64,000 bases of DNA from Escherichia coli (GTDB lineage: Bacteria > Pseudomonadota > Gammaproteobacteria > Enterobacterales > Enterobacteriaceae). The stretch is taken from NCBI GenBank assembly GCA_032372955.1, contig GCA_032372955.1_4725.1; one strand, given 5' to 3'. Shown here piece after piece: positions 31,681-47,990 of the stretch (positions are counted from its first letter, which is position 1; the number at the start of each line of letters is the position of its first letter). Below the pieces are notes generated by a model. That model saw only the letters and a list, made by a program, of their open reading frames with translations. It did not search any database and was not told the origin of the DNA. A program made the position numbers and the translations under genes.

Positions 31681-32616
31681 GTGAGTGATACGGTAACAAC
31701 TATTGACGACACCGAACTTTACCCGGTCGACGTCTCTTTACCCTCATCCGATCTCGTGTATGGTCTTATCAACCACGATAACCCACCTCAGAACGGAGAG
31801 CATGTTCTAACCCCTGAATTATTGGTTTTAGGAACACCAACCACCAACCAAAGCGCCTACGAGCGCGACACCCAGATTACGGCGACAGCAACCGCTAAGC
31901 TTACCGAGTTGGACGATTATGAAGGTTCGACGACGCTGTATTACGATCGTATTAACATCGGTGCGTATCTGCGTAACGTAGCGCCTATTCTTATCGATGC
32001 GCCAGACGCCGCCAAGATGCGTGATATCTGGCCTATCATCAAAGAACGTTTCGGTCTTGGCCTTACCGCGGAAGAAATCGTCAACGACGAACTTAACTGG
32101 GATACCGTTAACGGACAATTGCTTCGTGTCGCATCTAACTGCCTGGCTTGGACGGGGAGCGTTCGTATCTTGATGAAGTCGCGTGTACCGAATCTTGATG
32201 ATATTATCGCGATCAAGGAGCTGGACGGCCTTAAGTTCTTCGGTCAAGGCGTACGCGCTAGCGGCGAGATTTACAGTTACAGCCGTGATACTTCTGATTA
32301 CGGTGAACTGCTGGCTTCGCTGGTAACAGGTACCGTTATTAGCGATGTGGTGGTTGCCGATCTTCTGGCTGAAATGACTACCGATCGTTGGGTATTAGAC
32401 GACAACGCCGCACCGTATAACCTGTATAATGCTAAAGTGGCTTTCAACGGTGAGTTAGGCGGACGTATTCCAGCAAGAGCAGGTTACCAATACGGTATCG
32501 AGATCAGTCTGGATGAAAACTACTGTACTGCCGTTGGCGGTCCATTGATTTTCTATTACAATGTCGACGGACATACCGCAAGCCTCCAGGGTCGTTCTCC
32601 AGAAGAACAAGGCTAA
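31681..32616 (+). CDS. paralog family B protein (virion/fibre-associated candidate)
   Basis: GTG start 6 nt after GAGGAGG. Family motifs: YYDRINIGAYL, LAWTGSVRILMKS and a C-terminal YCTAVGGPLIFYYNV. Confidence 0.55.
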   Translation: MSDTVTTIDDTELYPVDVSLPSSDLVYGLINHDNPPQNGEHVLTPELLVLGTPTTNQSAYERDTQITATATAKLTELDDYEGSTTLYYDRINIGAYLRNVAPILIDAPDAAKMRDIWPIIKERFGLGLTAEEIVNDELNWDTVNGQLLRVASNCLAWTGSVRILMKSRVPNLDDIIAIKELDGLKFFGQGVRASGEIYSYSRDTSDYGELLASLVTGTVISDVVVADLLAEMTTDRWVLDDNAAPYNLYNAKVAFNGELGGRIPARAGYQYGIEISLDENYCTAVGGPLIFYYNVDGHTASLQGRSPEEQG

Positions 32617-32626
32617 GGAATAAACA

Positions 32627-33478
32627 ATGAGTCAGAAATTGTTAAACAAAAGTCCTAAAGTACTGGTCGCTGAACTTATTCAGGCAGCCAATCCTGACTT
32701 CGACTTTAACTTCGATGCAATTGATATCACGGATGTTGCTGAAAACGGAAACCACGCGTATAAACGGAACACGCGCGCTAAGGTATCGCCTTCGGCAACA
32801 GTAACACCAGCACAATACCGTGAAAGCAGCTACGTGTGGTACGATCGTATCCCTATCCAAGACTTCTTCTTGGGGATGGAACCGAAGCTTGCTATCGATG
32901 CCGGGGTTAAAACGACGCACGATCTTATCCCTCTGATTCAATCAACGTACGGAATCGTTATCGATCAGGATAGCTGCGTCGATTCTCCGATCGTACGAGG
33001 CGATGAATATCCGTTCCCGCACACCGTAGAATTGAAAACCACCGGATTGGCTTGGACGGGAAGTGTTACGTTCTATCTCCTCGATAGTGCCCACGATATT
33101 GCGGGGATGATGAAGACTTCGGTGATGACCGGTCTCAATTTCCCGTACTACACCGCAAATCGTATCCAGGCATTGGTCTACAGTTACGCCATAGACTGTA
33201 CAGCGATCCGTTCCGATCTCGCCGGATTAAAAGTTGGCGGTAACTTAAGCGCACTGGTTAGCTTATTCAACAACGTTGCGCCAACCCCGTGGGTTTATAA
33301 CGGCCGTGAAGACGAAAACAACCTTTACGGAGCCACCGTGCTTGCAACCGGTAAAACAACAGAACTTATCGCACAGGGTTATCCTGTTAACCCGGCGTTC
33401 GCTAACGCTGTCATCGTTACGCTTAGCCAAGATTACTGCACGAACTACGGCGGTATCCTGTTGATGCAATATAACTGA
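32627..33478 (+). CDS. paralog family B protein
   Basis: AAGGAA RBS. Family motifs: WYDRIPIQDFF, LAWTGSVTFYLLD and YCTNYGGILLMQYN. Confidence 0.55.
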   Translation: MSQKLLNKSPKVLVAELIQAANPDFDFNFDAIDITDVAENGNHAYKRNTRAKVSPSATVTPAQYRESSYVWYDRIPIQDFFLGMEPKLAIDAGVKTTHDLIPLIQSTYGIVIDQDSCVDSPIVRGDEYPFPHTVELKTTGLAWTGSVTFYLLDSAHDIAGMMKTSVMTGLNFPYYTANRIQALVYSYAIDCTAIRSDLAGLKVGGNLSALVSLFNNVAPTPWVYNGREDENNLYGATVLATGKTTELIAQGYPVNPAFANAVIVTLSQDYCTNYGGILLMQYN

Positions 33479-33494
33479 TTAAATAGGAAAAGAC

Positions 33495-34379
33495 ATGGCT
33501 TCTACACAAATCCGTGCTACCGATCGTATCGTCCGTACGATTATCGGCGGTCAAGTACAAACTAACCTTACGCTCGGTCTTCCTCATGCATGGGAAGAAC
33601 ACAGCACCTTGAATGAAAAGCTTCAGATTCAATCAAAGGTTTACCCCGAGGGTAATCCTGCTGTACGTTACTTCTGTATCGGCAACCAGGGTCACGAATT
33701 CATCCGCAACGCTAACGGTATCCCTTCCTCGATGCCGATCGCTCACGAAGCAAGCGATCTATCACCGTGGAAAATCAAACCTTTCGTAATGCGTGAAGTT
33801 GGTAACGACTTGACCACGGACGAACGCGCTAAATTTGGGTTACGTCGTATTGAGACACTGGAAAGCGGTAAAAAGTATATCTGTTATTACGGTCGTCGCA
33901 TCGATTTCGATAACGTTGTCCGCTCCATGCGTTATACCAAATACGTCGACGGTGTCGCTCAGACCATCGAATGGCATCCAACCGACGCGAACCTCAACCC
34001 CGCCCGACCAGATATTCCAACAACCGGAATTCTGGTAGCGACCGGGGAGTACTACGACTACAGCTGTAAAGTCTCTTTGGTTTGGACGCCATGGGATATT
34101 AACGAATATCTCAATGTGGCTAAACTCACCGAAGGTGGTGAAGAGTACGCGGTTATTTCTGAAATTGGGATGGTCTCTGCGGGCGATAAAATCGTTCGTG
34201 CTGATGATGGTCAAGGTTCGGCCTTCGACATGAACGAAATCGTCGGTGCGCAGGTTACCGATCTGATTTCGACTTACCACAACCTTTATACCACCAACGA
34301 TACGCTGACACTGAAATACGACCTTGGTGCGTTGGAAGCTCGTAAGGCAGGCCCGACGGGCGCAGAAATCCTACCGTAA
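33495..34379 (+). CDS. hypothetical protein (structural-module context)
   Basis: 294-aa ORF lying between family B genes. No assignable motif. Confidence 0.55.
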   Translation: MASTQIRATDRIVRTIIGGQVQTNLTLGLPHAWEEHSTLNEKLQIQSKVYPEGNPAVRYFCIGNQGHEFIRNANGIPSSMPIAHEASDLSPWKIKPFVMREVGNDLTTDERAKFGLRRIETLESGKKYICYYGRRIDFDNVVRSMRYTKYVDGVAQTIEWHPTDANLNPARPDIPTTGILVATGEYYDYSCKVSLVWTPWDINEYLNVAKLTEGGEEYAVISEIGMVSAGDKIVRADDGQGSAFDMNEIVGAQVTDLISTYHNLYTTNDTLTLKYDLGALEARKAGPTGAEILP

Positions 34380-34394
34380 CCTAAGGGGTGTTAA

Positions 34395-35300
34395 ATGGAG
34401 TACAGTGAAATCCTAGGGTTAGAATCGAAAGAAATCCTCTTTCGGCTGATTCGAAAGCATAGCGATTTCGATGCTCGAGGCGTAACGCTGGATAAACTGG
34501 TTATCGGTGAGGCTTCTGAAAGCACAGGGTACAAGCGTAACAGCAAGTTAACCGTGCATCCCCAGCCGGGTTCAGGGCTGGTGAACTCTGTCGACATCTA
34601 TTATAACCGCATCGATCTTGGTAAACTGGGTACTTGGCCTGGCGGACAGCACCACTGGCCCGTCGAGATCGAAACCTTAGATGCGCTAACCAAGGTCTCT
34701 GAGATCCTACCTGTCTTAGCATCGACGTACGGTATCCTTCTCAACAAAACCGAGATTGTCGACGCAGATCTGGATAAGTCCAAGTCACCGATACAGGTTG
34801 TGATAACACCTAAACCCGGTAACCAAGTATGGGTTGGTCAGTTACTTGTCGAGTTAACTTCAGGACATAATGACCTCAACAACCTCGTTCGCAACAATAT
34901 GTTGGCTGGGTTGAATTATATCATCGATCGAGATAGCAGTAAACTCCCGGGCGCTATTGTTTCGTACAACTGGTTCGTATCTGCTGGTGTTCTGGCGTCA
35001 CTTACCGATGGTTATACGTTAACCTCAGGTGATACGCAATCGGAGGCACTAATCGCAGAAATGAACATGCTGCAATTGGGTCTCTCTGAAGAGATCGACG
35101 GCCTTATGGTCAACGATCGCTGGGTATTGTCAGCAATACCTGGACCACTCAACTTGCAGAATGCGAGAGTAATAGCCGATCCAGAGCAATTCAAAACACT
35201 ACCGTTTGGCGTGCGTACGGATGTTAGTAAAGCCGTCGTACTTCAACTTAGTGTGATGAATACGCTCATCGATGGTTATCTAACGCTATATGTAGCATAA
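34395..35300 (+). CDS. paralog family B protein
   Basis: Family motifs: YYNRIDLGKLG, VWVGQLLVELTS and a C-terminal LIDGYLTLYVA. It is followed by the hairpin at 35310-35341. Confidence 0.55.
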   Translation: MEYSEILGLESKEILFRLIRKHSDFDARGVTLDKLVIGEASESTGYKRNSKLTVHPQPGSGLVNSVDIYYNRIDLGKLGTWPGGQHHWPVEIETLDALTKVSEILPVLASTYGILLNKTEIVDADLDKSKSPIQVVITPKPGNQVWVGQLLVELTSGHNDLNNLVRNNMLAGLNYIIDRDSSKLPGAIVSYNWFVSAGVLASLTDGYTLTSGDTQSEALIAEMNMLQLGLSEEIDGLMVNDRWVLSAIPGPLNLQNARVIADPEQFKTLPFGVRTDVSKAVVLQLSVMNTLIDGYLTLYVA

Positions 35301-35309
35301 CAGCATATC

Positions 35310-35341
35310 CCCTCCTCCTTCCCTGTTGGGTTGGAGGAGGG
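35310..35341. terminator. conserved Y/R hairpin, copy 6 (between convergent genes)
   Basis: ccctcctccttccc-tgtt-gggttggaggaggg, then ttatg. Confidence 0.7.
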
Positions 35342-35351
35342 TTATGTTTGG

Positions 35352-36632
35352 TTATTTGTTTTTCTGACTGGAATCGATCAATTCGAGCTTGTGTACTGTC
35401 TGCAACGTCGCATGCGTTTCCAACCAGACCTGGTGAAGATAAGGCGTATCGTTAAGCCGCTTAACGCGCGTATGTTTGTACAACGTATTTTCAAACAACA
35501 TGTTCTTACGAAGTCCCCAGCGCGAGTGAAGTACCCATAACGGTTTTTCATAGGTCTGCACGTAAGCTGGTAACTCGCCGAGATCGGCTCGAATCAGTCC
35601 TTCCGGTTTCTTACCTAAGAAATACTGTCCTGGTACACCACTTCGTGGTAAAGGTTCTTGTGTAACCTGAATCGATGTTGCTTTGATGTACACCCAGAAA
35701 CTGCAAGGATGCGTCACCCACGCTTTCAATGCTTTATCAGACAATAAACGATTGGCAACAATGTCGGACTGTGGGTCTTCTTCGTTCAACAGAATACCAA
35801 GAGATGTTAGATCAAGGTATTTGCGGGAACGGAAGTATCTTTCATAGAGAAACATGTTAATGCAGTTTATTTTCGCTGTCGTGTCGCTAACGATCGTGTA
35901 ACAATCGTCAAGAAGATGTAAATATCCCCCGAACACCAGCGCGACGGTTTCATCTTCGGCGACCTTGCGCGGTAGCCGTAAATACATCTCGTCCTTATAC
36001 GGCAAGAGCTTCGTGGAATCAGCGATCATCTCTTCTGTGATAGCATGGATTTCCAAACTCCCGATACGGCTAAAATCAATCATACCGATATCGTTTTCTT
36101 GGCCACGCTGTGCTGTCTTGAACCCACCTTGGATATAGACACCAACGTCTTTACCGTAAACGTGAGGATGGACATAACCGCCTACGGTGAACAAGCAGTG
36201 TTTGCCGATATTTTCGTAATTCGTATTCGCTTTCGTCAACAGGATATCAGTGCGTTCCGACTCGGGAATCGCGTTGCTTGGATGATAGCCACTATTACCG
36301 ACTTTAGGGAGAAAGCCTACCGTAATAGCGTCATGACAATAAAGCTTGTGGGTTTTAATCGACAGCTCGCCAGGCTGTCCACGAAGGTTAGTATGCGCAT
36401 CCGATTTCGCTTTCAACCACGCATTGAGTGTATCACTGCTGTTTTGAAGCTCGGATTGAAATGTGTACAGATCAATAACTTGTTGCTGGTCAGCATAGCT
36501 TTCATGGACCTGGATCTTGAGTTTTTGATACGTTGAGAACAACGTACTCAGGACACTTTCACCCGCCTCAAGCGCTGTCCAGGCCGTGCCAGAACCCACG
36601 GGTAATCCGTAAGTTTTTACCAATGTATACAT
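35352..36632 (-). CDS. hypothetical protein (426 aa)
   Basis: AAGGGGG 8 nt upstream of the ATG. It is a lone minus-strand gene inside the + strand structural block, bounded by a hairpin and a divergent intergenic region. Confidence 0.6.
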   Translation of the reverse strand: MYTLVKTYGLPVGSGTAWTALEAGESVLSTLFSTYQKLKIQVHESYADQQQVIDLYTFQSELQNSSDTLNAWLKAKSDAHTNLRGQPGELSIKTHKLYCHDAITVGFLPKVGNSGYHPSNAIPESERTDILLTKANTNYENIGKHCLFTVGGYVHPHVYGKDVGVYIQGGFKTAQRGQENDIGMIDFSRIGSLEIHAITEEMIADSTKLLPYKDEMYLRLPRKVAEDETVALVFGGYLHLLDDCYTIVSDTTAKINCINMFLYERYFRSRKYLDLTSLGILLNEEDPQSDIVANRLLSDKALKAWVTHPCSFWVYIKATSIQVTQEPLPRSGVPGQYFLGKKPEGLIRADLGELPAYVQTYEKPLWVLHSRWGLRKNMLFENTLYKHTRVKRLNDTPYLHQVWLETHATLQTVHKLELIDSSQKNK

Positions 36633-36686
36633 GGGAGAGGCCCCCTTATTTTATAGTTACAGTAATATTTTACCGCTGTTAACACA

Positions 36687-36704
36687 GGATACCCCAGGGT
36701 ATCC
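36687..36704. promoter_or_regulatory. perfect 18-bp palindrome GGATACCC-CA-GGGTATCC in a divergent intergenic region
   Basis: It lies between divergent genes 35352-36632 (-) and 36737-38890 (+). The 2-nt centre argues for a dimeric-protein operator rather than an RNA hairpin. Confidence 0.4.
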
Positions 36705-36736
36705 CATACTTACTAACAACTTGTAAAGGGCGCATC

Positions 36737-38890
36737 ATGACAGATGAAATTAAACGCCTTCCGTATAACCCGCAGGGGAATTTGGATGGCGCATGGGTTC
36801 CAGAAGAACCCGTCACTGTCCGTCCTTCCACGGGGACCGGATTTAACTTTCTCGTTCCTAAATACGCGCCATATTTTCGTAATGGGTTAAAGATCTACAA
36901 CCCTGAAACAAACGCGTATCTGGAAGAAGGCGTTGACTTTTTATGCACTCACCCCTTCCGTGCCATGGCTGCGCTGACCGGCCTGGAATTATACGGTTCC
37001 ATCATGCTGTTGGACACCGCATTCAGTGGACAGTTGCAACTGAACTACTATTCACTGGGGGGTGAGTTTACACTTGATCAACAACAAATTCTTAACGTTT
37101 TAGCCAACAACCTCTACGACCCCCGCGTTACGTTCTGGGAAAAGGTTGCTGACGTTCCTTCCGTATTCCCGCCAATCAACCACCAACATAATGTCGAAAC
37201 CGACACAATGACGTGGGACGATGTGGTGGCGGCAATCGAATCATTGAAAGAACCGCTTGAAGAAGGGTTCAATAAAGCAATGACCGCATTGCTGCAGCAC
37301 GAGAATCGTCGCGATAACCCCCATGGCGTAACCAAGGCTCAAGTTGGATTGGGGAATGTTCAGAACTTCACAACGGCGACCGAGAGCGATCTGGAAACCA
37401 TCGGTGAAAATCTGTACATGACGTTGGCGATGACGCGTAAGATGATCGCTAACCTGAGTGGTGATAGTGCTGCTGCACACATCAGCAACTACAACAACCC
37501 ACACAAGGTAACTAAAGCCCAGGTGGGACTCGGAAACGTTGAGAACTACGGTACAGCCGATAGTAATGCAACCATTACCGGTACGGCCACAAATCTGTAC
37601 ACAACACCAGCGGGTGTACGTGCGGCAATCAAGGCGATCACGGACGGCTTAAGTACGCGCATCGATCATGTCAACGCTGCGTTAACAACCCATACCGGGG
37701 ATAATAACAACCCTCACGCTGTTACGAAAGCACAGGTAGGACTGGGGGACGTACAGAACTACGGTGTGGCGTCTAATGGGGAAGCCGGTGCAGGTGTTGC
37801 TAACAACAAATACATGACGCCCGCAACCACAGCAGCCGCCATCGCAGCGTTAATCACCCCAACCGTAACCGAACATATCGGTAACACCAACAACCCACAT
37901 GGGGTGACCAAAGCCCAAGTCGGTCTGGGAAGCGTGCAGAACTTTGGGGTTGCTACTACCCAAGAAGCTATCGACGGTCAGGCTAACAACAAGTACATGA
38001 CACCAATACTTGTTCGTTACGCGATCGAGCAAATGGCTGGTCAAGGGTTCAGTAGTCACATCGCAAATACCGAGAACCCGCACCAAGTATCTAAAGCACA
38101 GGTAGGGTTGGGGAGTGTTGAAAACTATCCTGTCGCTTCTGATGTGGAAGCACAAACAGGTGTAGCGACCAACCGCTATATGACACCGGCTGCGACAAAA
38201 GCGGCAATCATCGCTTTAGCGGGTGATGGTTTTGCGGCACACGTTGTCGATAAGAGCAACCCGCATGAAGTAACAAAATCTCAAGTTGGGTTAGGGAACG
38301 TACAGGACTTTGCTGTCGCCACCGACACGCAAGCTGCCGACAAGACTAACCAGACGACGTACATGACACCGTACTCGACTTACAAGTCAATTGCGGCGTT
38401 TGCGGCGTTAGCCGATCATACGCACACAGCCGAACAAGTCGGTGCGCTCCCCATCAATGGGGGTAAGTTAACCGGACCAATCGATCTTTCAGCAACGTCT
38501 ATCACGGGTACCGGACTCGGTATCGATGGTGCTAATGGTTCAATCAACGTCAATAAGTTGACCATCAACCAGCTTCTGGAAGCTTACGGTGGCATTGAAT
38601 CCAGTGATACGATTAAAATCCTGAACGACGATGAGACGCCCGCTAACTTCCTTGCCGATGGCGATCTCGAAGGGATCAAATGGGTTAACATCAACAGCCA
38701 AGAACCTGGAGAGAACCAAGACGGCGAGAAGATGCAGAAGATCGGTAAGCTGAGCGATTACCTTAAGAACGATTATTTAACCAGCTTGAAGACGAACACA
38801 GCGTTCCGTGATGTCTTCCAAGCACTGCTTAGGGAATTCCTTGCTAACTTCAACGCGGTTATCAAAGCAACCGACTTCGAGACGTTATAA
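36737..38890 (+). CDS. tail fibre protein with six NPHxVTKAQVGLG repeats
   Basis: It has six ~60-aa repeats of the form H-x3-NPHxVTKAQVGLGxVxN[FY]...N(K/R)YMTP...AI, the classic phage tail-fibre repeat pattern. The terminator at 38897-38932 follows. Confidence 0.8.
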   Translation: MTDEIKRLPYNPQGNLDGAWVPEEPVTVRPSTGTGFNFLVPKYAPYFRNGLKIYNPETNAYLEEGVDFLCTHPFRAMAALTGLELYGSIMLLDTAFSGQLQLNYYSLGGEFTLDQQQILNVLANNLYDPRVTFWEKVADVPSVFPPINHQHNVETDTMTWDDVVAAIESLKEPLEEGFNKAMTALLQHENRRDNPHGVTKAQVGLGNVQNFTTATESDLETIGENLYMTLAMTRKMIANLSGDSAAAHISNYNNPHKVTKAQVGLGNVENYGTADSNATITGTATNLYTTPAGVRAAIKAITDGLSTRIDHVNAALTTHTGDNNNPHAVTKAQVGLGDVQNYGVASNGEAGAGVANNKYMTPATTAAAIAALITPTVTEHIGNTNNPHGVTKAQVGLGSVQNFGVATTQEAIDGQANNKYMTPILVRYAIEQMAGQGFSSHIANTENPHQVSKAQVGLGSVENYPVASDVEAQTGVATNRYMTPAATKAAIIALAGDGFAAHVVDKSNPHEVTKSQVGLGNVQDFAVATDTQAADKTNQTTYMTPYSTYKSIAAFAALADHTHTAEQVGALPINGGKLTGPIDLSATSITGTGLGIDGANGSINVNKLTINQLLEAYGGIESSDTIKILNDDETPANFLADGDLEGIKWVNINSQEPGENQDGEKMQKIGKLSDYLKNDYLTSLKTNTAFRDVFQALLREFLANFNAVIKATDFETL
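37300..38420 (+). repeat. six tandem ~180-nt coding repeats (tail-fibre repeat)
   Basis: The repeated NPHxVTKAQVGLGxVxN[FY] peptide recurs about every 60 aa. Confidence 0.8.
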
Positions 38891-38896
38891 CGGATG

Positions 38897-38932
38897 GGTG
38901 GGTTCTACCCACCTTTCCTTCTTTTTATTTTT
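38897..38932 (+). terminator. rho-independent terminator after tail fibre gene 36737-38890
   Basis: ggtgggt-tct-acccacc, followed by the T-rich tttccttctttttattttt. Confidence 0.7.
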
Positions 38933-38947
38933 CGATAGGATGTGAAA

Positions 38948-39457: not shown

Positions 39458-39461
39458 CCGC

Positions 39462-39947
39462 ATGAAGCTATCAACACTGCTTTCTGAATGGGGGACGTAT
39501 CTTACCCAAAAGAACCCTCACGAGGTAACGCCAACACAAACAGATGTCTACGTTAAGACCGAAGTGGCTTCTAAACTTGCACCGCTTGTTACCCAGTGTT
39601 ACCTTCCCTTTCTTTTTTTCAGTCGCGATCGTATCGTACCGTCTGGTTCTTACAACAACGGAAGAATAAGTTTGTCGGAAGGTGTTGCCGAATACAATAC
39701 CAAAGAGGGTGTTGTTCCTGCAACGACGTTGGATGTGTCTGGTGTAAGTGAATCTGTTGGCTGGGTTTATCTTGCTGTCACCGATAGCGGTTTCGCCTAT
39801 ACGTTAACGGATAGCAACAGTAGTTACAAAAACGTGATGCGTATCGGGACATGGAACAAAGTTCAGGGTACCGTGCACCTCGCGGCAACACGTAAGATCG
39901 GCACCGTTGAAATCGACGACGGACAGCTTCCTGACTCGCCTATTTAA
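39462..39947 (+). CDS. small fibre-associated protein (paralog of 38948)
   Basis: The N-terminus KLSTLLSEWGTYLTQKNPHEVTPTQTD carries the same N-terminal motif. Confidence 0.5.
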   Translation: MKLSTLLSEWGTYLTQKNPHEVTPTQTDVYVKTEVASKLAPLVTQCYLPFLFFSRDRIVPSGSYNNGRISLSEGVAEYNTKEGVVPATTLDVSGVSESVGWVYLAVTDSGFAYTLTDSNSSYKNVMRIGTWNKVQGTVHLAATRKIGTVEIDDGQLPDSPI

Positions 39948-39959
39948 TCGAGGTGAATA

Positions 39960-42563
39960 ATGGCAATGAAAAAGTTCAGCGAACTGGTGAATAGCGTTAC
40001 TACGCGTATCGCCAGTCGCAACAATCCAACAGGACTAAACGCGAGCGATCTCGGTGCCTACAGTACCGCTGAGTTCAACACTGAGATGGAAAAATACATC
40101 GATATTGGCGTAACCGATATCGAACAGGTTGGGGACCAAAGTTATTTTCCTCTGGCAATCGAAGGCTCCGCTGACGGTGCTATCTCCCTAAACGACAGAT
40201 ACCGTCGTTACGGCGTATGTCGTGAATCAGACGGTACTATCGTGTTATTGCGTTCAGCAACGAACAGCGTAAAGAAAGGGGTTTACTACGTTATCTGTAA
40301 AACAGATCAAAACGGGCAAATCACCGAAGTTATCCCAACCAGTCGTCGTTATGAACCCGCGACGCTCGACCGTATTCCTACGGCGATATACTGTCACCAG
40401 AACGGTATCATGTTAGGTCAAGCTGCTTTTGAAGACGGTAGCAGCCCTAAAATGTTTATCGCGTTGACAGACGGAACGTTTGACGCATCCAAACATGTCG
40501 CCATGTATCTTGATGGTAGTCTTGCCAACTTTGTTGATACATCACCGCATATCTGCTGTTGGGAAATTAACGGTAAAATCTACATCGCTATCGCTGGCAC
40601 TAACAGTTATAAACTCTACTTAAATGTTTATACCGTAACTAAATCTTCCATCGGTCCCAGCGGTGGCAGCGTAGCGGCTACGCAGCTTACGAATATTAGC
40701 GGTAGAACGATAGAAGGAACAGCGATAAGCAACAGTGCCGAGATGATTGTCTGCAACCGCATATCTGCGAACGATTTCCCTTCTGACGGGATCGGTCAAA
40801 TCGTCTGGCGCGCTCAGATTCGTCTGCATGCGGCAACCAAAGGCACGAAAGCACGTATTCTGATTGCTTCGTCGTGGTGGACAAACAACCGCAAAAATCA
40901 GCAAAAGAACGGGGTACATCAGTTCTATCTGGATTTTGAAACCACCAACAACAGTTATAGCATGAATCCAGGCGCTGGACAATCCACGTACGTGTCAACC
41001 GATAGCGGAATAGACTGGGTAGGACCTTCCAACACAACGGCGGGGACAAGCGGGTATAACGACGGTTTCTGGCAGTGGGGTTCGGGTAACAGTACGGGAA
41101 ATATTGAAATCGATGAACGTGGTCAAGTCGCTGTGATTCAAAACGACAACTTATCCGCTCCCTACGCACGATCGTACACTATCAGAGGTTTCTCTGGAAA
41201 CGTGTTTGACGAACTTGCCAAACTTGGTCCAACCAGTGGAATACAGCACGACTCAAACTGGAAAAGCGTTGACGATCGTGTCGTTGGTGCACTTGCGTCC
41301 CATGGTTACCTGGGTTTCTTTGCTAAAAACAAGGTTTTCGTTAACTCGCGTACGGCTGGTGGGCAAGGTAATTTCGAAGCCCGTTTGGTGACTTACGATT
41401 GGAACCTTAGCTATCGTTATCGAGGTGAGGGTATAGACGTTTACGGTTTTCCACCTTCCAACAACGTGGTGGTTAGCGCAGGTCAACTATCGCGACCTTT
41501 CCTAACCGTACATTTAAGCGATGACAATACGGTAGTTAGCGGGTCTTATTTAACTGATTCAAACTTATCCGGTAAAATCGGATACGACGCCACCAAACTC
41601 GCACCTTCCGGTGAAGACATCAGTATAACCGCAGCCAACCTGCAAGCGGGCGGACAGCTCGTGTGGAACGCGTATACTGGAACCAAGGTGTCTGGTGTTA
41701 GTCAGTGGCAGCATGCGTTAGCCGTACCTCCAGATGGTACAAACGCACCCTGTATTCTGTTTGTTGCTGGCTGTAATAACAGCACGCGCGTACATGGACG
41801 AATCGCTGCGGAAGTTACCGTATCCGCACGTAAAGGTGCTATTACGGTGACGGGCGTAACCAAACTGCTGGGTTATGTCGAGGAAGCCGATACAACAACT
41901 ATCGGTAGTCAGTATGCTGCCTGGGGTGCATTAGCTTACAAGAAGGTGAGTGATGGATGGCTTGTTGCGGGACATGTTCCGTACTCCCGTCAGTCTGCAG
42001 GGAACCAGAACACCTATCAGTTCCGAGCTGGACGACAAAACGATGGGAACTGGACAACCATCGCATTTGAAGGTATGTATGCTTACCTACAGACAAGCGG
42101 CTGGCGCTGGAACGTGCATCCGGTGTGGGGAATCGGTTATGTTGATACCGCAGTCTCTACGGTGATGGGTAATGGCGGTCAAGTCTTTAGCGCTGTCGGT
42201 AATTCCGTTGCGGAATATAAAGCTCTCGCTGTTAAAAACCGTTACATGGTTTCTACGGTCGTTGCTGCTTCCGGTTACGATATCTACATCAACGAAGACA
42301 TCACTTGCTTGTTTGCCGGTAAAGTCATGACCCTACCTAAAGGCCATTATAACCTAAAAGACTATAATAGCTCACCAGGTAATAAAACATGGTACGTTTC
42401 CGTTGTTCCTAATGGCGACCAGTTAGAACTGGAGTTAACCATCTACAAGCAAGAGGATGATAAAGGACAGCGCGTTAATATCGGAACGATTACGACCAGC
42501 GATACCCAGATCTCTGTCATTAATCTCAATAAGACAACCAAATTAGGTACAGTCACGTTATAA
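39960..42563 (+). CDS. large tail fibre / receptor-binding candidate (867 aa)
   Basis: The N-terminus KFSELVNSVTTRIASRNNPTGLNASDL matches the two preceding genes. The remainder is rich in G/S/T/N/W. It lies between two tail-fibre genes. Confidence 0.5.
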   Translation: MAMKKFSELVNSVTTRIASRNNPTGLNASDLGAYSTAEFNTEMEKYIDIGVTDIEQVGDQSYFPLAIEGSADGAISLNDRYRRYGVCRESDGTIVLLRSATNSVKKGVYYVICKTDQNGQITEVIPTSRRYEPATLDRIPTAIYCHQNGIMLGQAAFEDGSSPKMFIALTDGTFDASKHVAMYLDGSLANFVDTSPHICCWEINGKIYIAIAGTNSYKLYLNVYTVTKSSIGPSGGSVAATQLTNISGRTIEGTAISNSAEMIVCNRISANDFPSDGIGQIVWRAQIRLHAATKGTKARILIASSWWTNNRKNQQKNGVHQFYLDFETTNNSYSMNPGAGQSTYVSTDSGIDWVGPSNTTAGTSGYNDGFWQWGSGNSTGNIEIDERGQVAVIQNDNLSAPYARSYTIRGFSGNVFDELAKLGPTSGIQHDSNWKSVDDRVVGALASHGYLGFFAKNKVFVNSRTAGGQGNFEARLVTYDWNLSYRYRGEGIDVYGFPPSNNVVVSAGQLSRPFLTVHLSDDNTVVSGSYLTDSNLSGKIGYDATKLAPSGEDISITAANLQAGGQLVWNAYTGTKVSGVSQWQHALAVPPDGTNAPCILFVAGCNNSTRVHGRIAAEVTVSARKGAITVTGVTKLLGYVEEADTTTIGSQYAAWGALAYKKVSDGWLVAGHVPYSRQSAGNQNTYQFRAGRQNDGNWTTIAFEGMYAYLQTSGWRWNVHPVWGIGYVDTAVSTVMGNGGQVFSAVGNSVAEYKALAVKNRYMVSTVVAASGYDIYINEDITCLFAGKVMTLPKGHYNLKDYNSSPGNKTWYVSVVPNGDQLELELTIYKQEDDKGQRVNIGTITTSDTQISVINLNKTTKLGTVTL

Positions 42564-42576
42564 GGACCTCCAGGTT

Positions 42577-44625
42577 ATGTCGACACCAATTACCCTGAAG
42601 TACCCCGAGGACTGGACCGGTACACTCGCCAGCAACCACATCGTTGGTGAAGAGCATACCGTTCCACGAACCGAGAATAAATGTTACGCCCTTGATGGCG
42701 GACCGTTCTTCACCGAAAGTCTGGTCATCACTGAAAAGCTTACCGGTAAGACACTGGTACGAGGCGTGGATTATAAACCCATTTTCTTGTATCAGGATGC
42801 AACGCTTTACGCAGGTAAAGAAATCTGTGCAGCCATCGCCATCATCAACGATGATATCGAGGGGACATTAGTTAACGACTATTGTATCATCGGTGGTGTT
42901 TACGTAAGTCTTATTGACGCGTTATATCAGGCTATCGAAGAACTCAAACTTGACGATCGTCCGATCAACTGGGACGACATCAAGAACAAACCGGAACTTT
43001 ATCCGCCTGAACCACACATCCACCACGTTAGCGCCATCTACGGTACCGAACATCTTTGCTTAGCGATCTATTCACTGAAAGCCGCAATACTTATCGGTGA
43101 TGCTGCGTCCGATAACCGTCTCTGGGCAGCAATCGATCAGTTACGCAAAGACATGCAAGCAGCGGATAAAGATCTGACCGATCTGCATTACGCTCACGCT
43201 AACCGTACCGATAACCCGCACGAAACCACAAAAGCCCAAGTCGGACTAGGTAACGTACAGAACTATCCTACCGCAAACAAGGCGGAGGCAGAAGCCGGTA
43301 CTGCACCTGACCGATACATGACCGCACAAACGGTTGGTTGGGCGATTGCTAAACTGGCGGGCGATCTAGTCGATGCGCACGCTAACCGTCGGGATAACCC
43401 GCACAGCGTCACCAAAGCGCAGGTTAACCTTGGGAACGTTGATAACTTCCCGACCGCTTCGGATGATGAGGCGAAAGCCGGGACAGCGAACAACCGTTTC
43501 ATGACGCCGCTACGTACCGTTGCCGCGATCGAACAGTTCGCGTTGATTCCACTTAACGCGCATAAAGCCGATTATAACAACCCACACAGGGTAACGAAAG
43601 CCCAGGTGGGATTAGGGAATGTGCAAGACTATCCGATGGCTTCTGAAGAAGAAGCGCGTGCCGGTGTTGCAGCTAACCGATTAATGGCACCGAACACAAC
43701 CAAAGCGTCCATTGAGACCTTTGCGTTAGTTCCGCTTAATGCACACATCGCTGACAAGAATAACCCACACCAAGTGTCTAAAGCACAAGTAGGGTTAGGA
43801 AGTGTTGAGAACTACCCAACCGCTAACCAAGCTGAGGCGCAAGGTGGTTCTGCGACGAACCGTTACATGACGCCACAGTCTACCAACTGGGCAATTCAGA
43901 AATTAGCGGGTGATCTGGTTAACGCTCACGCTAACCGTCGAGACAACCCGCACGCTGTTACGAAAGCGCAGGTAGGGTTAGGGAACGTACAGAACTATGG
44001 TATCGCTTCCGATGCGCATGCGCAGCAAGATGTTAACACCGTGTATTCTACACCACGTAACGCCCGTCTCGCTGCAACGCACATCATCGACACACGCTTG
44101 TTCTGGGGTTCTTACAGCGGAAACAAACTGGTCTTCGTTGATGGTAATGGTGGTACGCGTTTAGGTAAACATGTCATCATCACGGAGAATGGCGGCGGTG
44201 AGATCACACGCTTCTATTGGGGGAACTCTGCGGGCGGTGGTAGTGCGCTATACTTCAACAGCAATATCGATGTTCCTAACGCTTACATTCGCTCGGATGA
44301 GCGTAGTAAACACGACATCCGTTATCTGAAAGACCATCCAGAATCTCTCAGTGAACGTTTACGTGAAATGGCGCGCAATGGGCTTGCCCGCTTCCGTCAC
44401 AACTACGATCCTGATGTCGAGAAGATCGGTGTTATCGCACAGCGTGTTCAAGAACAGTTCCCTGAAATGATCAACGTATCAGATAAAGGACTGTTAAGTC
44501 TTGACACCATGGTGTATAGCGGGGTTCTGTTAGGCGGTTGGTACGAACACGACCAACAGCTTCGTGCTCTGCGTGCAATGGTTGAAGAAATTGCACATCA
44601 CGTGAAAGGAACCAAGGGTATTTAA
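42577..44625 (+). CDS. tail fibre protein with a C-terminal S74 intramolecular-chaperone (autoproteolytic) domain
   Basis: It has five NPHxVTKAQVGLGNVxNY repeats. The C-terminus reads YIRSDERSKHDIRYL...IGVIAQRVQEQFPEMI...LSLDTMVYSGVLLGGW, which matches the S74 chaperone-domain pattern (SDxRxK...GxIAQxV...PE). Confidence 0.85.
   Translation: MSTPITLKYPEDWTGTLASNHIVGEEHTVPRTENKCYALDGGPFFTESLVITEKLTGKTLVRGVDYKPIFLYQDATLYAGKEICAAIAIINDDIEGTLVNDYCIIGGVYVSLIDALYQAIEELKLDDRPINWDDIKNKPELYPPEPHIHHVSAIYGTEHLCLAIYSLKAAILIGDAASDNRLWAAIDQLRKDMQAADKDLTDLHYAHANRTDNPHETTKAQVGLGNVQNYPTANKAEAEAGTAPDRYMTAQTVGWAIAKLAGDLVDAHANRRDNPHSVTKAQVNLGNVDNFPTASDDEAKAGTANNRFMTPLRTVAAIEQFALIPLNAHKADYNNPHRVTKAQVGLGNVQDYPMASEEEARAGVAANRLMAPNTTKASIETFALVPLNAHIADKNNPHQVSKAQVGLGSVENYPTANQAEAQGGSATNRYMTPQSTNWAIQKLAGDLVNAHANRRDNPHAVTKAQVGLGNVQNYGIASDAHAQQDVNTVYSTPRNARLAATHIIDTRLFWGSYSGNKLVFVDGNGGTRLGKHVIITENGGGEITRFYWGNSAGGGSALYFNSNIDVPNAYIRSDERSKHDIRYLKDHPESLSERLREMARNGLARFRHNYDPDVEKIGVIAQRVQEQFPEMINVSDKGLLSLDTMVYSGVLLGGWYEHDQQLRALRAMVEEIAHHVKGTKGI
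43180..44095 (+). repeat. five tandem ~180-nt coding repeats (tail-fibre repeat)
   Basis: This is the same repeat family as 37300-38420. Some units are also clearly similar at the DNA level (for example, the ENPHQVSKAQVGLGSVENYP units at ~38076 and ~43762). Confidence 0.8.
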
Positions 44626-44630
44626 TTCAA

Positions 44631-44708
44631 CGTTCTAGAACGCGTTGTAACGCTTCGAAAAGTTTAACCTGGGGTTTGCCTGGATTAAATCGTTTATCGC
44701 GTTCTAGA
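44631..44708. promoter_or_regulatory. inverted repeat pair TCTAGAACGCG / CGCGTTCTAGA upstream of the endolysin
   Basis: There are 11-bp perfect arms at 44634-44644 and 44698-44708, separated by 53 nt. The first arm sits inside the 12-bp palindrome CGTTCTAGAACG (44631-44642). Confidence 0.4.
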
Positions 44709-44752
44709 CCCTTCCTTGTTCCTCTAAATCGTTATTCCGACGAGGAGTTCTA

Positions 44753-45388
44753 ATGGCTAAGATTACTGAAAAAGATTTTACCTGCGAATTCATCATTCGC
44801 GACAAAACCGATGTTGAAGGTGGGTATATTGATGACCCGGATGACAGCGGGAAATGTACAAACCACGGCATCACGCAAGCGCTTGCTAATCAATACAAAA
44901 CCACGCTGAAAACGAAATTCGGCTGGAACGGTAACATGCGTAACCTTACCACGGAAATGGCGTTCTTTATCTACAAGACTCATTTCTGGGATAAGATGAA
45001 GCTTGACGAAGTCATGAAACGTTCTGTGTTCTTAGCTGACCGTCTCTTTGACCTGGGTATCAATGCAGGTAAAACGGTTGCGGTTAAGAACCTTCAGCGT
45101 TACCTGAACGTCATGAACAACCGTCAAACTTACTGGAAAGATATCAACGCCGACGGTTTGATGGGACCTGCGACGTTAGGCGTACTCGACGCTTACATCG
45201 CTAAACGCGGAGAAACCGGTAAAGATTATCTCATCGACGCGATGCTAGATATGCAGAGCACTTACTACATCGAATTAGCTGAACGTCGTGAGAAAGACGA
45301 GAAGTTCATTTACGGTTGGCAGGCACGTAAACGTCGTGAGCGTAAGCGTTATGAAGCGATCATCTTGAACGGGTTCAGTGCTGAGTAA
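44753..45388 (+). CDS. endolysin, GH108-type muramidase with a C-terminal peptidoglycan-binding domain
   Basis: The N-terminal VEGGYIDDPDDSGKCTNHGITQ matches the GH108 EGGY...GG.TN.GIT motif. NADGLMGPATLGVLDAYI resembles a PG_binding_3 domain. GAGGAG RBS. Confidence 0.8.
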   Translation: MAKITEKDFTCEFIIRDKTDVEGGYIDDPDDSGKCTNHGITQALANQYKTTLKTKFGWNGNMRNLTTEMAFFIYKTHFWDKMKLDEVMKRSVFLADRLFDLGINAGKTVAVKNLQRYLNVMNNRQTYWKDINADGLMGPATLGVLDAYIAKRGETGKDYLIDAMLDMQSTYYIELAERREKDEKFIYGWQARKRRERKRYEAIILNGFSAE

Positions 45389-45451
45389 AACCCTGCCGTA
45401 AACCGTCATAAAACGCTCCAGAACGAACGGAACGCATAAAGACGTATAAGA

Positions 45452-45483
45452 CCCCTCCTCACCCAATAACGGATGAGGAGGGG
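45452..45483. terminator. conserved Y/R hairpin, copy 7 (divergent variant with a larger loop)
   Basis: cccctcctca...tgaggagggg, a 10-bp perfect stem. It lies between the endolysin and the convergent gene 45683-46225. Confidence 0.55.
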
Positions 45484-45682
45484 CTTAACAGGTGTTCGTG
45501 TTTATTCAGGTTGGTCTGGGTCCCTGGCCGCTTGAGGAGATCCACAACCCTTTCAACACCACGCTTCATACGAAGCGCTCAATGAGAAAGATAAGCGTGC
45601 AACCACGCAGATTGTTACAACCAAATTGTAGAAGAGCAATAGCCGAGCTGTACAAAACCCATACTATTGCTCTTTATGCTTA

Positions 45683-46225
45683 TTAGCCAACAACGCTAAC
45701 GGTCGGTTTCACGAAGCCATCAGCTACGTTATCCGCCAGAACGGTTGCCAGGTCATCTTTCGGTGCAGCTGCGTAGGTCAGTGCAACCTGCAGAGTGCCG
45801 GTATATACCAGGCCATTCTCGATCGCATTCAGAGTTACCTGACCAACAGTACCTGCAGACAGCTGGAAGGTTTCTTCATTGATTTCACCGGTCAGGGAAG
45901 CCAGACCGAATTTGGTGACCAGCTTGCTTACCAGCTCGGAAGCCTTAATGCTGTCGGTACCGTGCGGCAGTTCGAAAGTAACATCGCCAGTTACATCAGC
46001 GAAAACTTCGGACAGAGCCAGACGATCGTAGTAGAACTGCTGAGTACCCTGCAGGTTAGCTGCTTCAGCTGCAGCATCCAGCTGAATAACGGTGTTCTTT
46101 TCATGTTCGGAAGACGTCTGCGGAGTACCGAACTGCAGTTCTTCTTCGGTCAGCGTGCGGGTTGCTTTGGTGTTGATAAGATCAAGCAGAAGGGATTTCG
46201 CTGCTTTGTTAAAGTCTAAGGCCAT
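45683..46225 (-). CDS. abundant short paralog of family B (N-terminal domain only)
   Basis: I set the start at ATG 46225 (GAGG upstream); the track start at 46324 lies in AT-rich promoter DNA. Family motifs: FYYDRLALSEVF and LVYTGTLQVALTY. Its codon usage is as optimised as the capsid gene. Confidence 0.65.
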   Translation of the reverse strand: MALDFNKAAKSLLLDLINTKATRTLTEEELQFGTPQTSSEHEKNTVIQLDAAAEAANLQGTQQFYYDRLALSEVFADVTGDVTFELPHGTDSIKASELVSKLVTKFGLASLTGEINEETFQLSAGTVGQVTLNAIENGLVYTGTLQVALTYAAAPKDDLATVLADNVADGFVKPTVSVVG

Positions 46226-46286
46226 GATAATGTGTCCTCTGATTTTTGATGGTCGAAAAGGAGATTCGGAGTCGTTCTCCATAATA

Positions 46287-46321
46287 TTTACATTAATATA
46301 AAATATATTAATTTCTGTAAA
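46287..46321. promoter_or_regulatory. AT-rich, near-symmetric divergent promoter candidate between genes 45683-46225 (-) and 46367-47260 (+)
   Basis: tttacattaatata-aaa-tatattaatttctgtaaa. Each strand reads TATATTAAT(n0-3)TGTAAA. The plus-strand half (TTAATTTCTGTAAA) matches TTAATTCTGTAAA upstream of the capsid gene. Confidence 0.4.
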
Positions 46322-46366
46322 CACTTACATCTTTTGAGAGTGATGTAACAACCATAGAGGTAGAAA

Positions 46367-47260
46367 ATGGCAACTCAAGTTTCGCTTACTTTAAAAACAC
46401 CTTGGCAACTTATCGTTGATGAGATTAACAAACTCAACGCCGACACTGGTGCCAGCTTCCAATACACCGACCTTAAATACGTTCTTAAAGAAAAGAATCC
46501 TTCTGCTCCAGAAGCAACTTTAACGCTTAGCCCTGGTGATGGTACCCCTTACTTCAATAACCGTGATGTTACCTACCATCGTCTGGATCTGGCTAAATGG
46601 TTCCAGAAAATCGCTGTACGTGTTAACGTTACTGCTGACACCACCATCGGTGATGTGGTTGACCTTGTAGCTCAACGCTACGGTATGATCACACCGACCG
46701 GTGAGAAGTTCCTGGATAAAGATAAAGACATCAAAGCCGATACGTTATCTAATCCGGTTACCTTCAACGAGCATGGTATCCAGACGATCACCCTGGAAGC
46801 TAAAGAAGATTCGTTGGCGTGGTACGGCTCTGTTCAAGTTAAAGTTTATAACACCACGCTGGATCTGGCTAACATCATCAAGGTTACCAATCTGGGTAAC
46901 TTAACCTACGTTGATGAAGGCGACGGCACCAAAACGTCAGCACGTCTGTTAACCTATCCGTTAGACTTCAGTACTTACACCGCAGGTTTACAAGCTATTA
47001 CCAGCAACGATACCAAGATCGATGCAGGCTTAGCAGGTAACCTGACTACCCTGATCAAAGAGCAGACTGGTGTAAGTGATGATATCATCAATGAACTGAA
47101 AACCAATCTGCAAACAGCTACCTTTGTCTATAACGGTGCTACCACCGGGTCTACTGACAAAGGTGTTAACGCTACGTACAGCAATGTGCTGGTGCTGTCG
47201 TTAGCTGACGGTACTCACACCTACGGTAAAGCAGTATTCGGTTATAACGTTTCCGAATAA
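46367..47260 (+). CDS. paralog family B protein
   Basis: AGAGG RBS. Family motifs: TYHRLDLAKWF, LAWYGSVQVKVYN and a C-terminal HTYGKAVFGYNV. It is followed by the hairpin at 47277-47308. Confidence 0.6.
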   Translation: MATQVSLTLKTPWQLIVDEINKLNADTGASFQYTDLKYVLKEKNPSAPEATLTLSPGDGTPYFNNRDVTYHRLDLAKWFQKIAVRVNVTADTTIGDVVDLVAQRYGMITPTGEKFLDKDKDIKADTLSNPVTFNEHGIQTITLEAKEDSLAWYGSVQVKVYNTTLDLANIIKVTNLGNLTYVDEGDGTKTSARLLTYPLDFSTYTAGLQAITSNDTKIDAGLAGNLTTLIKEQTGVSDDIINELKTNLQTATFVYNGATTGSTDKGVNATYSNVLVLSLADGTHTYGKAVFGYNVSE

Positions 47261-47276
47261 TTTTAATTAATCTCTC

Positions 47277-47308
47277 CCTTCCTCCTTCCCTGTTGGGTTG
47301 GAGGAAGG
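47277..47308. terminator. conserved Y/R hairpin, copy 8
   Basis: ccttcctccttccc-tgtt-gggttggaggaagg, then tttatg. It marks the end of the structural block, just before the ORF-free region. Confidence 0.7.
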
Positions 47309-47399
47309 TTTATGTTTGTGATTATTCTTCTCTTTTATAATTTCTAATGATAAGATTAAGTACCTGGAGTAAAAGTTTACAGATGTTGTAAATGTATTT

Positions 47400-47740: not shown

Positions 47741-47990
47741 TTGTTTTGAAGATAAGCTTATTAACTTACTTTTAAATCAATTTAAATATACAAACAACTT
47801 AAACATACCAAGATAAAACAATTGAACCTAAGATAAACAAGATAACTTAGACAATACACTTTTAACGAATACAGATAACATCTTACTTAAATCAAAATAC
47901 CTATCCTCGTTTACCTTCCTTGCTTGCAACACCTCTTCTAAATCCATCCCTTCTTAAGAAACAACAAAACCCTTACTGTAACACAAATCC
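47741..47990. repeat. AT-rich non-coding segment with AGATAA/GATAAC iterons and a CTTACTT(TT)AAATCAA direct repeat
   Basis: AGATAA occurs at 47750, 47811, 47831, 47840 and 47873. The direct repeats are at 47765-47780 and 47882-47895. Confidence 0.5.

Follow-up and report, generated by a model that had tools for sequence, protein, structure and literature searches.

The five open reading frames (ORFs) singled out in an earlier note on this DNA are true paralogs and represent the chimallivirus family DUF7941 in this stretch. The proteins of this family probably form self-associating, flexible filaments on the exterior of the virion, in which three of the five (A, B and C) would be adaptors and the other two (D and E) bulk subunits. 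The observation of a paralog family is correct but not new, as the genes, their paralogy, their presence in the virion and a functional model have been published for a phage that is 96.5% identical. Virion presence, copy numbers and gp22 filaments were shown by others on orthologues that are 91-98% identical. What is added here is the conservation of the connector between the two domains, the tandem and lectin fusions, the evolutionary rates of the gp22- and gp23-like genes, and the linkage of the family to wedge, spoke and endolysin genes. In a model jumbo phage of the nucleus-forming type, each virion carries thousands of copies of the family's proteins, and the family may represent a new kind of host-capture organelle. 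The residual value of the present analysis is that it joins three literatures (Pfam DUF7941, SPN3US family B and phiKZ gp127), that it exposes an unaddressed contradiction on the position of these proteins, and that it identifies the linker as their most constrained element.

The window, which is the whole stretch of 64,000 nucleotides that was analysed, is approximately 96.5% identical to the chimallivirus Escherichia phage Goslar (median nucleotide identity 96.7%), and it is collinear with Goslar gp1 to gp56 and covers approximately gp1 to gp57 of that genome. The phage in the window is Goslar-like but a strain of its own. All five ORFs were present as described, and each quoted motif string was found in their translations. 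They are orthologues of Goslar gp34, gp33, gp31, gp23 and gp22, in the same order and orientation, at 91-98% amino acid identity. Member A (31681..32616, + strand, 311 aa) is the gp34 orthologue and a full-length DUF7941 protein with an N-domain, a conserved connector and a C-domain. It matches Pfam PF25613 with an E-value of 7e-64 (216 bits, profile positions 3-275 of 276), and it is 98.4% identical to gp34 with a dN/dS of 0.045. Member B (32627..33478, + strand, 283 aa), the gp33 orthologue, is also full length (PF25613 E 1.5e-47, 163 bits; PHROG 1037 E 7e-61) and is 97.9% identical to its counterpart with a dN/dS of 0.069. Member C (34395..35300, + strand, 301 aa), the gp31 orthologue, is the third full-length protein (PF25613 E 2.8e-55, 188 bits; 98.0% identity; dN/dS 0.077). 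Member D (45683..46225, - strand, 180 aa) is the gp23 orthologue and a short form, which matches only profile positions 4-174 of 276 (E 2e-21, 77 bits) and comprises an N-domain followed by only the first half of the connector, without the C-domain. Its start is almost certainly the ATG of MALDFNK, since the Goslar annotation has that start, rather than the GTG of a 213-aa ORF. Member E (46367..47260, + strand, 297 aa; PF25613 173 bits) is the gp22 orthologue, full length and transcribed divergently from D.

Membership in the family was supported by both profile and pairwise comparisons. All five ORFs matched a single Pfam model at E-values of 1e-21 to 1e-64, and their whole-protein scores of 77 to 216 bits exceed the PF25613 (DUF7941) gathering threshold of 27 bits. 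The coverage of A, B and C lies within profile positions 2-275 of 276, and the domain architecture of A to D was fixed from this Pfam coverage. Pairwise BLASTP was significant for eight of the ten pairs: A-B (1e-19), A-C (2e-11), A-E (3e-10), A-D (4e-10), B-E (1e-10), B-C (1e-9), C-E (1e-9) and C-D (3e-4). By BLASTP alone the remaining pairs, B-D (0.45) and D-E (0.04), were not significant, which is the one point in favor of a similarity due to chance or composition with no family at all. That explanation has a negligible probability and is already refuted by the eight significant pairs, by the match of all five to a curated Pfam model at E <= 2e-21, and by the agreement of the fold with phiKZ gp127, the sole solved DUF7941 member. 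In addition, three neighboring ORFs used as controls (33495, 35352 and 44753) never gave a BLASTP E-value better than 0.5 against the five. A profile built from the five sequences found no sixth member among the window's 451 six-frame ORFs with a length of 50 aa or more; the five ORFs scored E <= 2e-57 and the next best 0.16. The ORFs at 33495-34379 and 35352-36632 were considered as further members and rejected, as they are dissimilar and belong to other families (DUF7208 and the phiKZ gp130 homologues, respectively). None of the five matched PF12699, the inner-body/ejection family (SPN3US paralog family A), at E <= 0.1. All five proteins are acidic, with a pI of 4.3-4.9.

The earlier note did not recognise the family. 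However, it is already catalogued as Pfam DUF7941, as PHROG 1037/2935 and as "paralog family B" of the Salmonella phage SPN3US (2016-17), and it has one solved structure. The claim of novelty therefore fails, because a well-known annotated domain was the very outcome that the note had named as grounds for abandoning it. The count of five members holds inside the window but not genome-wide, as the Goslar preprint lists five more, gp86, gp91, gp92, gp93 and gp161 (bioRxiv 10.64898/2026.04.21.720040). These lie outside the window because their gene numbers exceed the range of approximately gp1 to gp57. According to a published claim, the DUF7941 domain occurs in Spiroplasma proteins as well.

The four long members share an N-terminal globular domain of approximately 160 aa, a connector of approximately 35 aa and a C-terminal domain of approximately 100 aa. 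The two motifs reported earlier fall on the N-domain columns with the highest conservation in an alignment of 72 members (Y70 96%, R72 99% and G154 92%), but a third and better conserved motif between the domains had been overlooked. This motif, L-x8-L-x-GL-x-YP ... K-x-A-x2-YSY-x2-D, lies in the connector and corresponds in E to L176, G178, L179, Y181 and P182, plus Y-S-Y. Across 25 gp22 orthologues, variability is lowest in the connector, residues 166-200 (entropy 0.15; N-domain 0.40, C-domain 0.50), and the connector is the most information-rich segment across 72 diverse members (1.76 bits versus 1.41 and 1.55). Thus, the so-called linker is the most constrained and best-conserved element of the family. 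An AlphaFold2 model of E (pLDDT 89 overall, pTM 0.60) shows a pair of domains with a less confident segment between them, and the lowest pLDDT, approximately 70, is that of the connector. This prediction used a shallow alignment of 40 sequences, as a second homologue search, run with the diverse alignment, returned almost only gp22 orthologues. Natural single-chain fusions carry two or three N-domains, or an N-domain and two C-domains; SPN3US gp155, for example, has tandem N-domains. Other natural fusions join the family to Laminin_G_3 lectin and He_PIG Ig domains, and members encoded elsewhere in the genome bear lectin, hydrolase or LRR domains.

The family sits in the baseplate and tail-fibre module, as had been proposed. 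Directly upstream of A is the baseplate wedge gene (29210..31621, + strand; Goslar gp35), which is 34% identical to PHIKZ128 by BLASTP (E 4e-119). Between B and C lies the DUF7208 baseplate "spoke" gene (33495..34379, + strand; Goslar gp32, phiKZ gp139), which matches Pfam PF23838 (E 2e-96) and PHIKZ139 (tblastn, 34% identity, E 2e-41) and has no similarity to the five members by BLASTP or the family profile. Directly downstream of C is the phiKZ gp130 homologue (35352..36632, - strand; Goslar gp30; BLASTP to PHIKZ130 25% identity, E 1e-27). In the phiKZ atlas, gp128 is a wedge subunit and gp130 is a star-lobe protein of the outer baseplate, beneath which the fibres attach. A link of members A, B and C to the baseplate is supported by their position among these wedge, spoke and star-lobe homologues. 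An endolysin gene lies near D, and wedge, spoke and endolysin genes are linked with family genes in Goslar, phiKZ and SPN3US. In approximately 11 phages from several chimallivirus groups, the spoke gene has a DUF7941 gene less than 1 kb away. The spoke protein is a likely docking partner of the family.

Members D and E evolve rapidly. Member D is 91.1% identical to Goslar gp23 (dN 0.052), and the dN/dS values of D and E are 0.32 and 0.25, compared to a window median of 0.059. By dN, D ranks 5th and E ranks 7th among 56 genes. At the protein level the gp22- and gp23-like genes evolve approximately five times faster than their neighbors, and they are among the genes most diverged from Goslar (8-9% amino acid difference).

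The 2026 Goslar preprint reports that these genes are paralogs, gives their domain layout and copy numbers, describes gp22 filaments and offers a functional model (bioRxiv 10.64898/2026.04.21.720040). Mass spectrometry detected all five orthologues in this near-identical phage, so that the earlier description of the five as virion proteins was borne out. The reported copies per virion are approximately 2100 for gp23, 580 for gp22, 112 for gp33, 27 for gp34 and 8 for gp31. Co-purification of filaments with virions, if it occurs, could have raised these estimates. Purified gp22 formed long filaments in vitro by negative stain EM, AlphaFold3 predicted head-to-tail dimers, and the authors proposed a baseplate-anchored "fibre cloud" of long flexible filaments that catch the host; DUF7941 density was not seen in the baseplate, capsid or neck maps (bioRxiv 10.64898/2026.04.21.720040).

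In phiKZ, the band of gp139 dimers terminates at gp127, a DUF7941 protein of the outer peripheral baseplate (PDB 9xqd chain 0), which was placed by docking an AlphaFold model of residues 1-150 only in a 4.4 A map. The phiKZ members gp126, gp127 and gp143 show only 18-24% identity, and phiKZ has three paralogs compared to ten in Goslar. Six copies of the gp127 N-domain were modelled and a filament was not described for phiKZ. Just as A adjoins the wedge gene in the window, gp126 and gp127 abut gp128 in phiKZ.

In SPN3US, the published family B comprises gp83, gp138-155, gp160 and gp237 (PMC5105663, PMC5694885, PMC10052503). Family HMMs built from 5 and 72 sequences matched 15 SPN3US ORFs (gp83, 138-145, 148, 151, 154, 155, 160 and 237; E 6e-14 to 2e-82), and Pfam DUF7941 itself matched gp138, gp141, gp145 and gp148. 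The family numbers between 15 and more than 20 members in SPN3US, and a single tandem array located 34 kb away from the spoke gene holds most of them; gp83, which is the reciprocal best match of D, adjoins the spoke gene. In SPN3US, as in Goslar, one long member and one short one are present at high copy. In tailless SPN3US heads, which were CsCl-purified from two mutants, nearly all family members were kept and the spoke protein gp84 was lost. Spectral counts from wild type to tailless were 19 to 18 for gp83, 420 to 326 for gp141, 280 to 149 for gp160, 66 to 0 for gp84 and 686 to 8 for the sheath. Family B, except gp237, remained at 50-100% of wild-type counts on DNA-filled tailless heads at 1.424-1.430 g/ml, the retention was confirmed in triplicate with a tail-tube amber mutant, and only gp237 follows the tail. 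These data argue that most of the mass of the family does not depend on the tail. A purely baseplate-anchored cloud cannot be general because tailless heads keep these proteins, and this conflict is absent from the discussion in the Goslar preprint.

The proposed mechanism is that the subunits would be arranged as "beads on a string," with the connector (and the C-domain) of one docking on the N-domain of the next to give flexible head-to-tail filaments outside the virion. The gp23-like D and the gp22-like E would be the bulk subunits, at hundreds to thousands of copies. Members A, B and C, whose copies number in the tens or below, are the strongest candidates for an adaptor role, in which they would fasten these chains to the spoke tip of the baseplate in the way that gp127 of phiKZ caps the band of gp139. 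With members that bear lectin, hydrolase or LRR domains, such an assembly would enlarge the capture radius for host-surface glycans. We infer the docking mode, the external position of D and E and the split between adaptors and bulk subunits; the head-to-tail interface is a predicted one rather than an observed one. The tandem-module fusions and the tandem N-domains of gp155 support a serial arrangement. A docking role for the connector is supported because it is the most conserved segment and yet has the lowest pLDDT in the monomer model. An external, glycan-facing role is supported by the lectin and Ig fusions, the acidic pI and the fast evolution of D and E. The earlier suggestion of surface or adaptor proteins agrees with the published model, the lectin fusions, the fast-evolving members and the linkage to the spoke, although the surface position of the abundant members is the inferred part of it.

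It is possible, but less likely than not, that D and E have no anchor on the baseplate and instead attach to the head or neck, or are even packaged within it, like nearly all SPN3US members in the two tailless mutants. The fibre cloud would then extend from the capsid side or the proteins would have a role after ejection, and true baseplate parts would be limited to a small number of low-copy proteins (the phiKZ gp127 type, SPN3US gp237 and possibly A to C). The stricter form, that the abundant members are internal head proteins which are packaged alongside the DNA and enter the host by ejection, appears unlikely. The label 'Head ejection?' was tentatively given to gp141 and gp160 by the SPN3US authors, and the retention on DNA-filled tailless heads, an abundance like that of the PF12699 ejection proteins and the lack of ordered external density for the family in Goslar cryo-EM all fit with it. 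However, the prohead protease leaves the members unprocessed, whereas gp53 and gp54, the major ejection proteins, are processed, and the peptide coverage of SPN3US gp141 is 94%. The surface-type domains fused to members (lectin, Ig, glycoside-hydrolase and LRR), the outer baseplate position of phiKZ gp127, the long filaments of purified gp22 and the location of the genes in the baseplate-fibre module rather than the head module also argue against it.

An equally improbable explanation is that the family is only a low-copy "cement" that caps or braces the baseplate periphery in vivo, and that the high counts and in vitro filaments reflect self-aggregation and co-purification. The single gp127 modelled per star lobe in phiKZ (6 per virion), the missing filament density in Goslar and the low copy numbers of the A, B and C orthologues (approximately 8 to 112) would all be expected of a cement, and gp22 polymerises alone, so that free polymers are possible in lysates. 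Against the cement explanation, filaments made of protein alone would not be expected at the CsCl density of 1.39-1.43 g/ml where virions and heads band, yet the family proteins persist after dual gradients. Goslar and SPN3US independently yielded similarly high counts for a long and a short member. In addition, the strong conservation of the connector and paralog numbers that have grown to 10 or to more than 15 argue for a selected polymer function. External filaments thus remain the preferred explanation.

A literature search for hair- or whisker-like appendages in DUF7941-rich Erwinia phages returned nothing usable. The family profile, when applied to six-frame ORFs of the phiKZ locus, matched only gp126, gp127 and gp143 and not gp131-135 (SPN3US family C), which is a paralog expansion in the same baseplate-fibre module that is unrelated to DUF7941 in sequence. 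In chaperone-usher pili, a peptide of each subunit completes or binds the next globular domain, which results in a thin, flexible polymer bearing adhesin variants. DUF7941 has no sequence or fold relation to these pili and has neither chaperone nor usher, but the docking logic proposed here, with its predicted interface, would be analogous.

The five ORFs of the family are A (31681-32616), B (32627-33478), C (34395-35300) and E (46367-47260) on the plus strand and D (45683-46225, 180 aa) on the minus strand. All five had been listed in the earlier note, and every motif string quoted there was found in them; only the coordinates of D were amended, as its start is almost certainly an internal ATG, as in the reference-phage annotation. 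Significant BLASTP similarity was obtained for 8 of the 10 pairs, from 1e-19 (A-B) down to 3e-4 (C-D), with B-D and D-E as the only weak pairs. Three adjacent control ORFs gave no BLASTP value below 0.5 against the five members. In addition, a five-member profile run against the 451 six-frame ORFs of the window (at least 50 aa) retrieved exactly A-E (E <= 2e-57; next 0.16). Chance similarity among the five is excluded.

Across 31681-35300, identity to the 237-kb chimallivirus Escherichia phage vB_EcoM_Goslar is 96.5%, and gp1 to gp56 of this phage are collinear with the window in reversed order. A-E are orthologues of Goslar gp34, gp33, gp31, gp23 and gp22, which carry the RefSeq label "virion structural protein." All five match Pfam PF25613 (DUF7941; E 2e-21 to 7e-64), with full model coverage in A, B, C and E and positions 4-174 only in D, and also PHROG 1037 and 2935 ("virion structural protein"). 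Among PDB sequences, a search with the family profile identified phiKZ gp127 in 9xqd (outer peripheral baseplate; E 3.5e-17). When 1.84 billion cluster representatives were searched exhaustively with an HMM, 2241 clusters of the family were recovered with E <= 1e-3 and 837 with E <= 1e-10. By tblastn, relatives were located in 115 phage records, enterobacterial jumbo phages in nearly every case, with 1 to 6 places detected in each genome. The observation made in the earlier note is genuine and accurate. The family that it did not recognise is, however, already documented at all levels, in PF25613, in proteomics, by a single solved structure and through a proposed mechanism for 91-98% identical orthologues, so that by the note's own criterion of a known annotated domain it does not count as new. 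Of most use to others are its equivalence with SPN3US family B, a head-versus-baseplate contradiction and a conserved connector motif.

An April 2026 Goslar preprint (bioRxiv 10.64898/2026.04.21.720040) refers to the family as DUF7941 and lists ten Goslar members (gp22, 23, 31, 33, 34, 86, 91, 92, 93 and 161). Copy numbers per virion are estimated there at about 2140 for gp23 and 580 for gp22, with about 112 for gp33, 27 for gp34 and 8 for gp31 in its Table S4. Purified gp22 forms filaments by negative stain, head-to-tail oligomers are predicted by AlphaFold3, and the preprint proposes that a "fibre cloud" anchored on the baseplate serves to recognise the host. A 2026 paper (PMC13375240) states that, per InterPro, DUF7941 occurs in Spiroplasma Spaid-like proteins, which would contradict the preprint's claim of a chimallivirus-exclusive module. 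Proteins of the DUF7941 family had been described in 2016-17 in the SPN3US papers, uncited in the preprint, under the name "paralog family B"; of its roughly 20 members, gp141 (32.6 kDa) and gp160 (18.5 kDa) exceed 300 copies each. Between them, our own profiles and Pfam DUF7941 match SPN3US gp83, gp138-145, gp148, gp151, gp154, gp155, gp160 and gp237, so family B is DUF7941.

The AF2 model of E (mean pLDDT 89.2, pTM 0.60) has an alpha/beta N-domain (about 8-165), a lower-confidence segment (about 166-200) and a C-domain (about 201-297). In 25 gp22 orthologues, column entropy is 0.15 in the connector between the domains versus 0.40 in the N-domain and 0.50 in the C-domain; in 72 diverse members, its information is 1.76 bits versus 1.41 and 1.55, respectively, with the motif L-x8-L-x-GL-x-YP ... 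K-x-A-x2-YSY-x2-D. The motif is complete in A, B, C and E, and D has its first half only. In these alignments, no other segment of the protein is as tightly constrained as the so-called "disordered linker." A stretch that is strongly conserved and yet has low pLDDT in the monomer is compatible with a peptide becoming ordered upon partner binding, which the head-to-tail model needs. Natural single-chain fusions carry two or three N-domains, or one N-domain and two C-domains; for example, SPN3US gp155 (725 aa; L007 6170-8347) has a tandem pair of N-domains. By a Rosetta-stone style argument, such fusions suggest a serial arrangement. Further fusions bear surface-type domains (Laminin_G_3 lectin, He_PIG Ig), which point to an external, glycan-facing role. 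Also, some Goslar-like phages (contigs up to 243 kb) encode internally deleted gp22 orthologues of about 205 aa (P0065, P0067, P0069 and P0071), in which profile positions 4-75 join directly to 148-272, so that about half of the N-domain is gone and the connector and C-domain are kept.

A, B and C sit among homologues of the phiKZ wedge gp128 (4e-119), spoke gp139 (2e-41) and star-lobe gp130 (1e-27), and phiKZ gp126 and gp127 also adjoin gp128. Similarly, some 300 bp separate D from the endolysin gene, as the short phiKZ gp143 adjoins endolysin gp144. In about eleven phages of several groups, the distance between the spoke gene and a DUF7941 gene is less than 1 kb; in SPN3US, one of these phages, the DUF7941 gene is gp83, the reciprocal best match of D. 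Gene order around the family is conserved. The wedge homologue (29210-31621; 34% identity to phiKZ gp128) is only a "hypothetical protein" in the Goslar annotation; its ATG at 29210 is conserved, and the automatic ORF listing begins at TTG 29141. In phiKZ GenBank AF399011 (L006 1116-3290), gp128, like gp145 and gp146, is labelled "structural head protein," whereas cryo-EM in the 2026 phiKZ atlas (PMC13250141) makes it a baseplate wedge subunit, so early head/tail labels are fallible. The same module holds a separate paralog pair of large fibre-like proteins, gp29-like (36737-38890) and gp25-like (42577-44625), in each of which a repeat of about 45 aa (core NPH-x-VTKAQVGLG-x-V-x-N) occurs 6-7 times; the latter ends in Peptidase_S74 (intramolecular chaperone) per the Goslar annotation.

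Compared with Goslar, D (dN 0.052, dN/dS 0.32) and E (dN 0.044, dN/dS 0.25) rank 5th and 7th in dN among 56 window genes, whereas dN/dS is 0.045-0.077 in A, B and C (window median 0.059). By evolutionary rate, the members form two groups. It is somewhat more probable than otherwise that D and E are subunits that would polymerise into filaments on the virion surface, and that A, B and C would serve as low-copy adaptors tied to the spoke tip; in the phiKZ atlas, each star lobe bears a single gp127 at the outer tip of a band of five gp139 dimers.

The SPN3US data conflict with baseplate anchoring of most of the family. Spectral counts for CsCl-purified tailed and tailless particles of mutant 64_112(am27) (Table S4) fell from 686 to 8 for the sheath and from 66 to 0 for the spoke homologue gp84, and fibre paralogs gp168-170, present in tailed particles, gave 0. 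However, MCP (1723 and 1691), gp83 (19 and 18) and, roughly, gp138-154 were retained, as was gp155 on tailless heads; gp141 went from 420 to 326 and gp160 from 280 to 149. A tail-tube amber mutant, analyzed in triplicate after dual CsCl gradients, agrees, with gp237 alone moved to the tail. This short protein (L008 6365-6916), whose gene adjoins the tape-measure and gp238 genes, is the sole member lost with the tail. Most family mass in SPN3US thus associates with the virion independently of the baseplate. Head- or neck-anchored filaments, capsid-entangled filaments, an internal location or lineage differences are possible reconciliations. That the members are internal head or ejection proteins is nevertheless unlikely, given the lack of protease processing, the 94% peptide coverage of SPN3US gp141, the lectin fusions and the phiKZ member on the baseplate. 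A purely structural baseplate cement, whose abundance would be a co-purification artefact, we also regard as improbable.

Median amino acid identity of window genes to Goslar is 98.5%, and a few diverge far more. For example, the gp16-like ORF (50549-50977) is 56% identical with dS 1.46, effectively a different allele, and the gp27-like (39462-39947) and gp21-like (48098-48880) ORFs are 83% and 87% identical; at the other extreme, identity reaches 100% for the gp6-, gp17- and gp19-like ORFs. Such a mosaic suggests recombination among Goslar-like phages. Orthologues of gp22 (P0008, P0015, P0020 and P0046) also occur on 236-246 kb contigs within assemblies submitted under the names Salmonella enterica, Shigella flexneri or E. 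coli; thus, complete Goslar-like genomes appear to accompany sequenced isolates, by carrier state or contamination.

Lastly, an AT-rich geneless gap of 837 bp (47261-48097), also unannotated in Goslar, separates the gp22-like and gp21-like genes and contains no Rfam match, tRNA or ORF above 39 aa. The genes on either side show some of the strongest divergence from Goslar (93% and 89% nucleotide identity), although the 400-bp core of the gap (47361-47761) is 99-100% identical. The core has inverted repeats and three of the window's ten AGTTATCM boxes within 190 bp, and folds into about 8 strong hairpins in a row (plus strand, -119 kcal/mol, z -6.2). This element may encode a non-coding RNA, act as a regulatory array or represent a patch of recent exchange.
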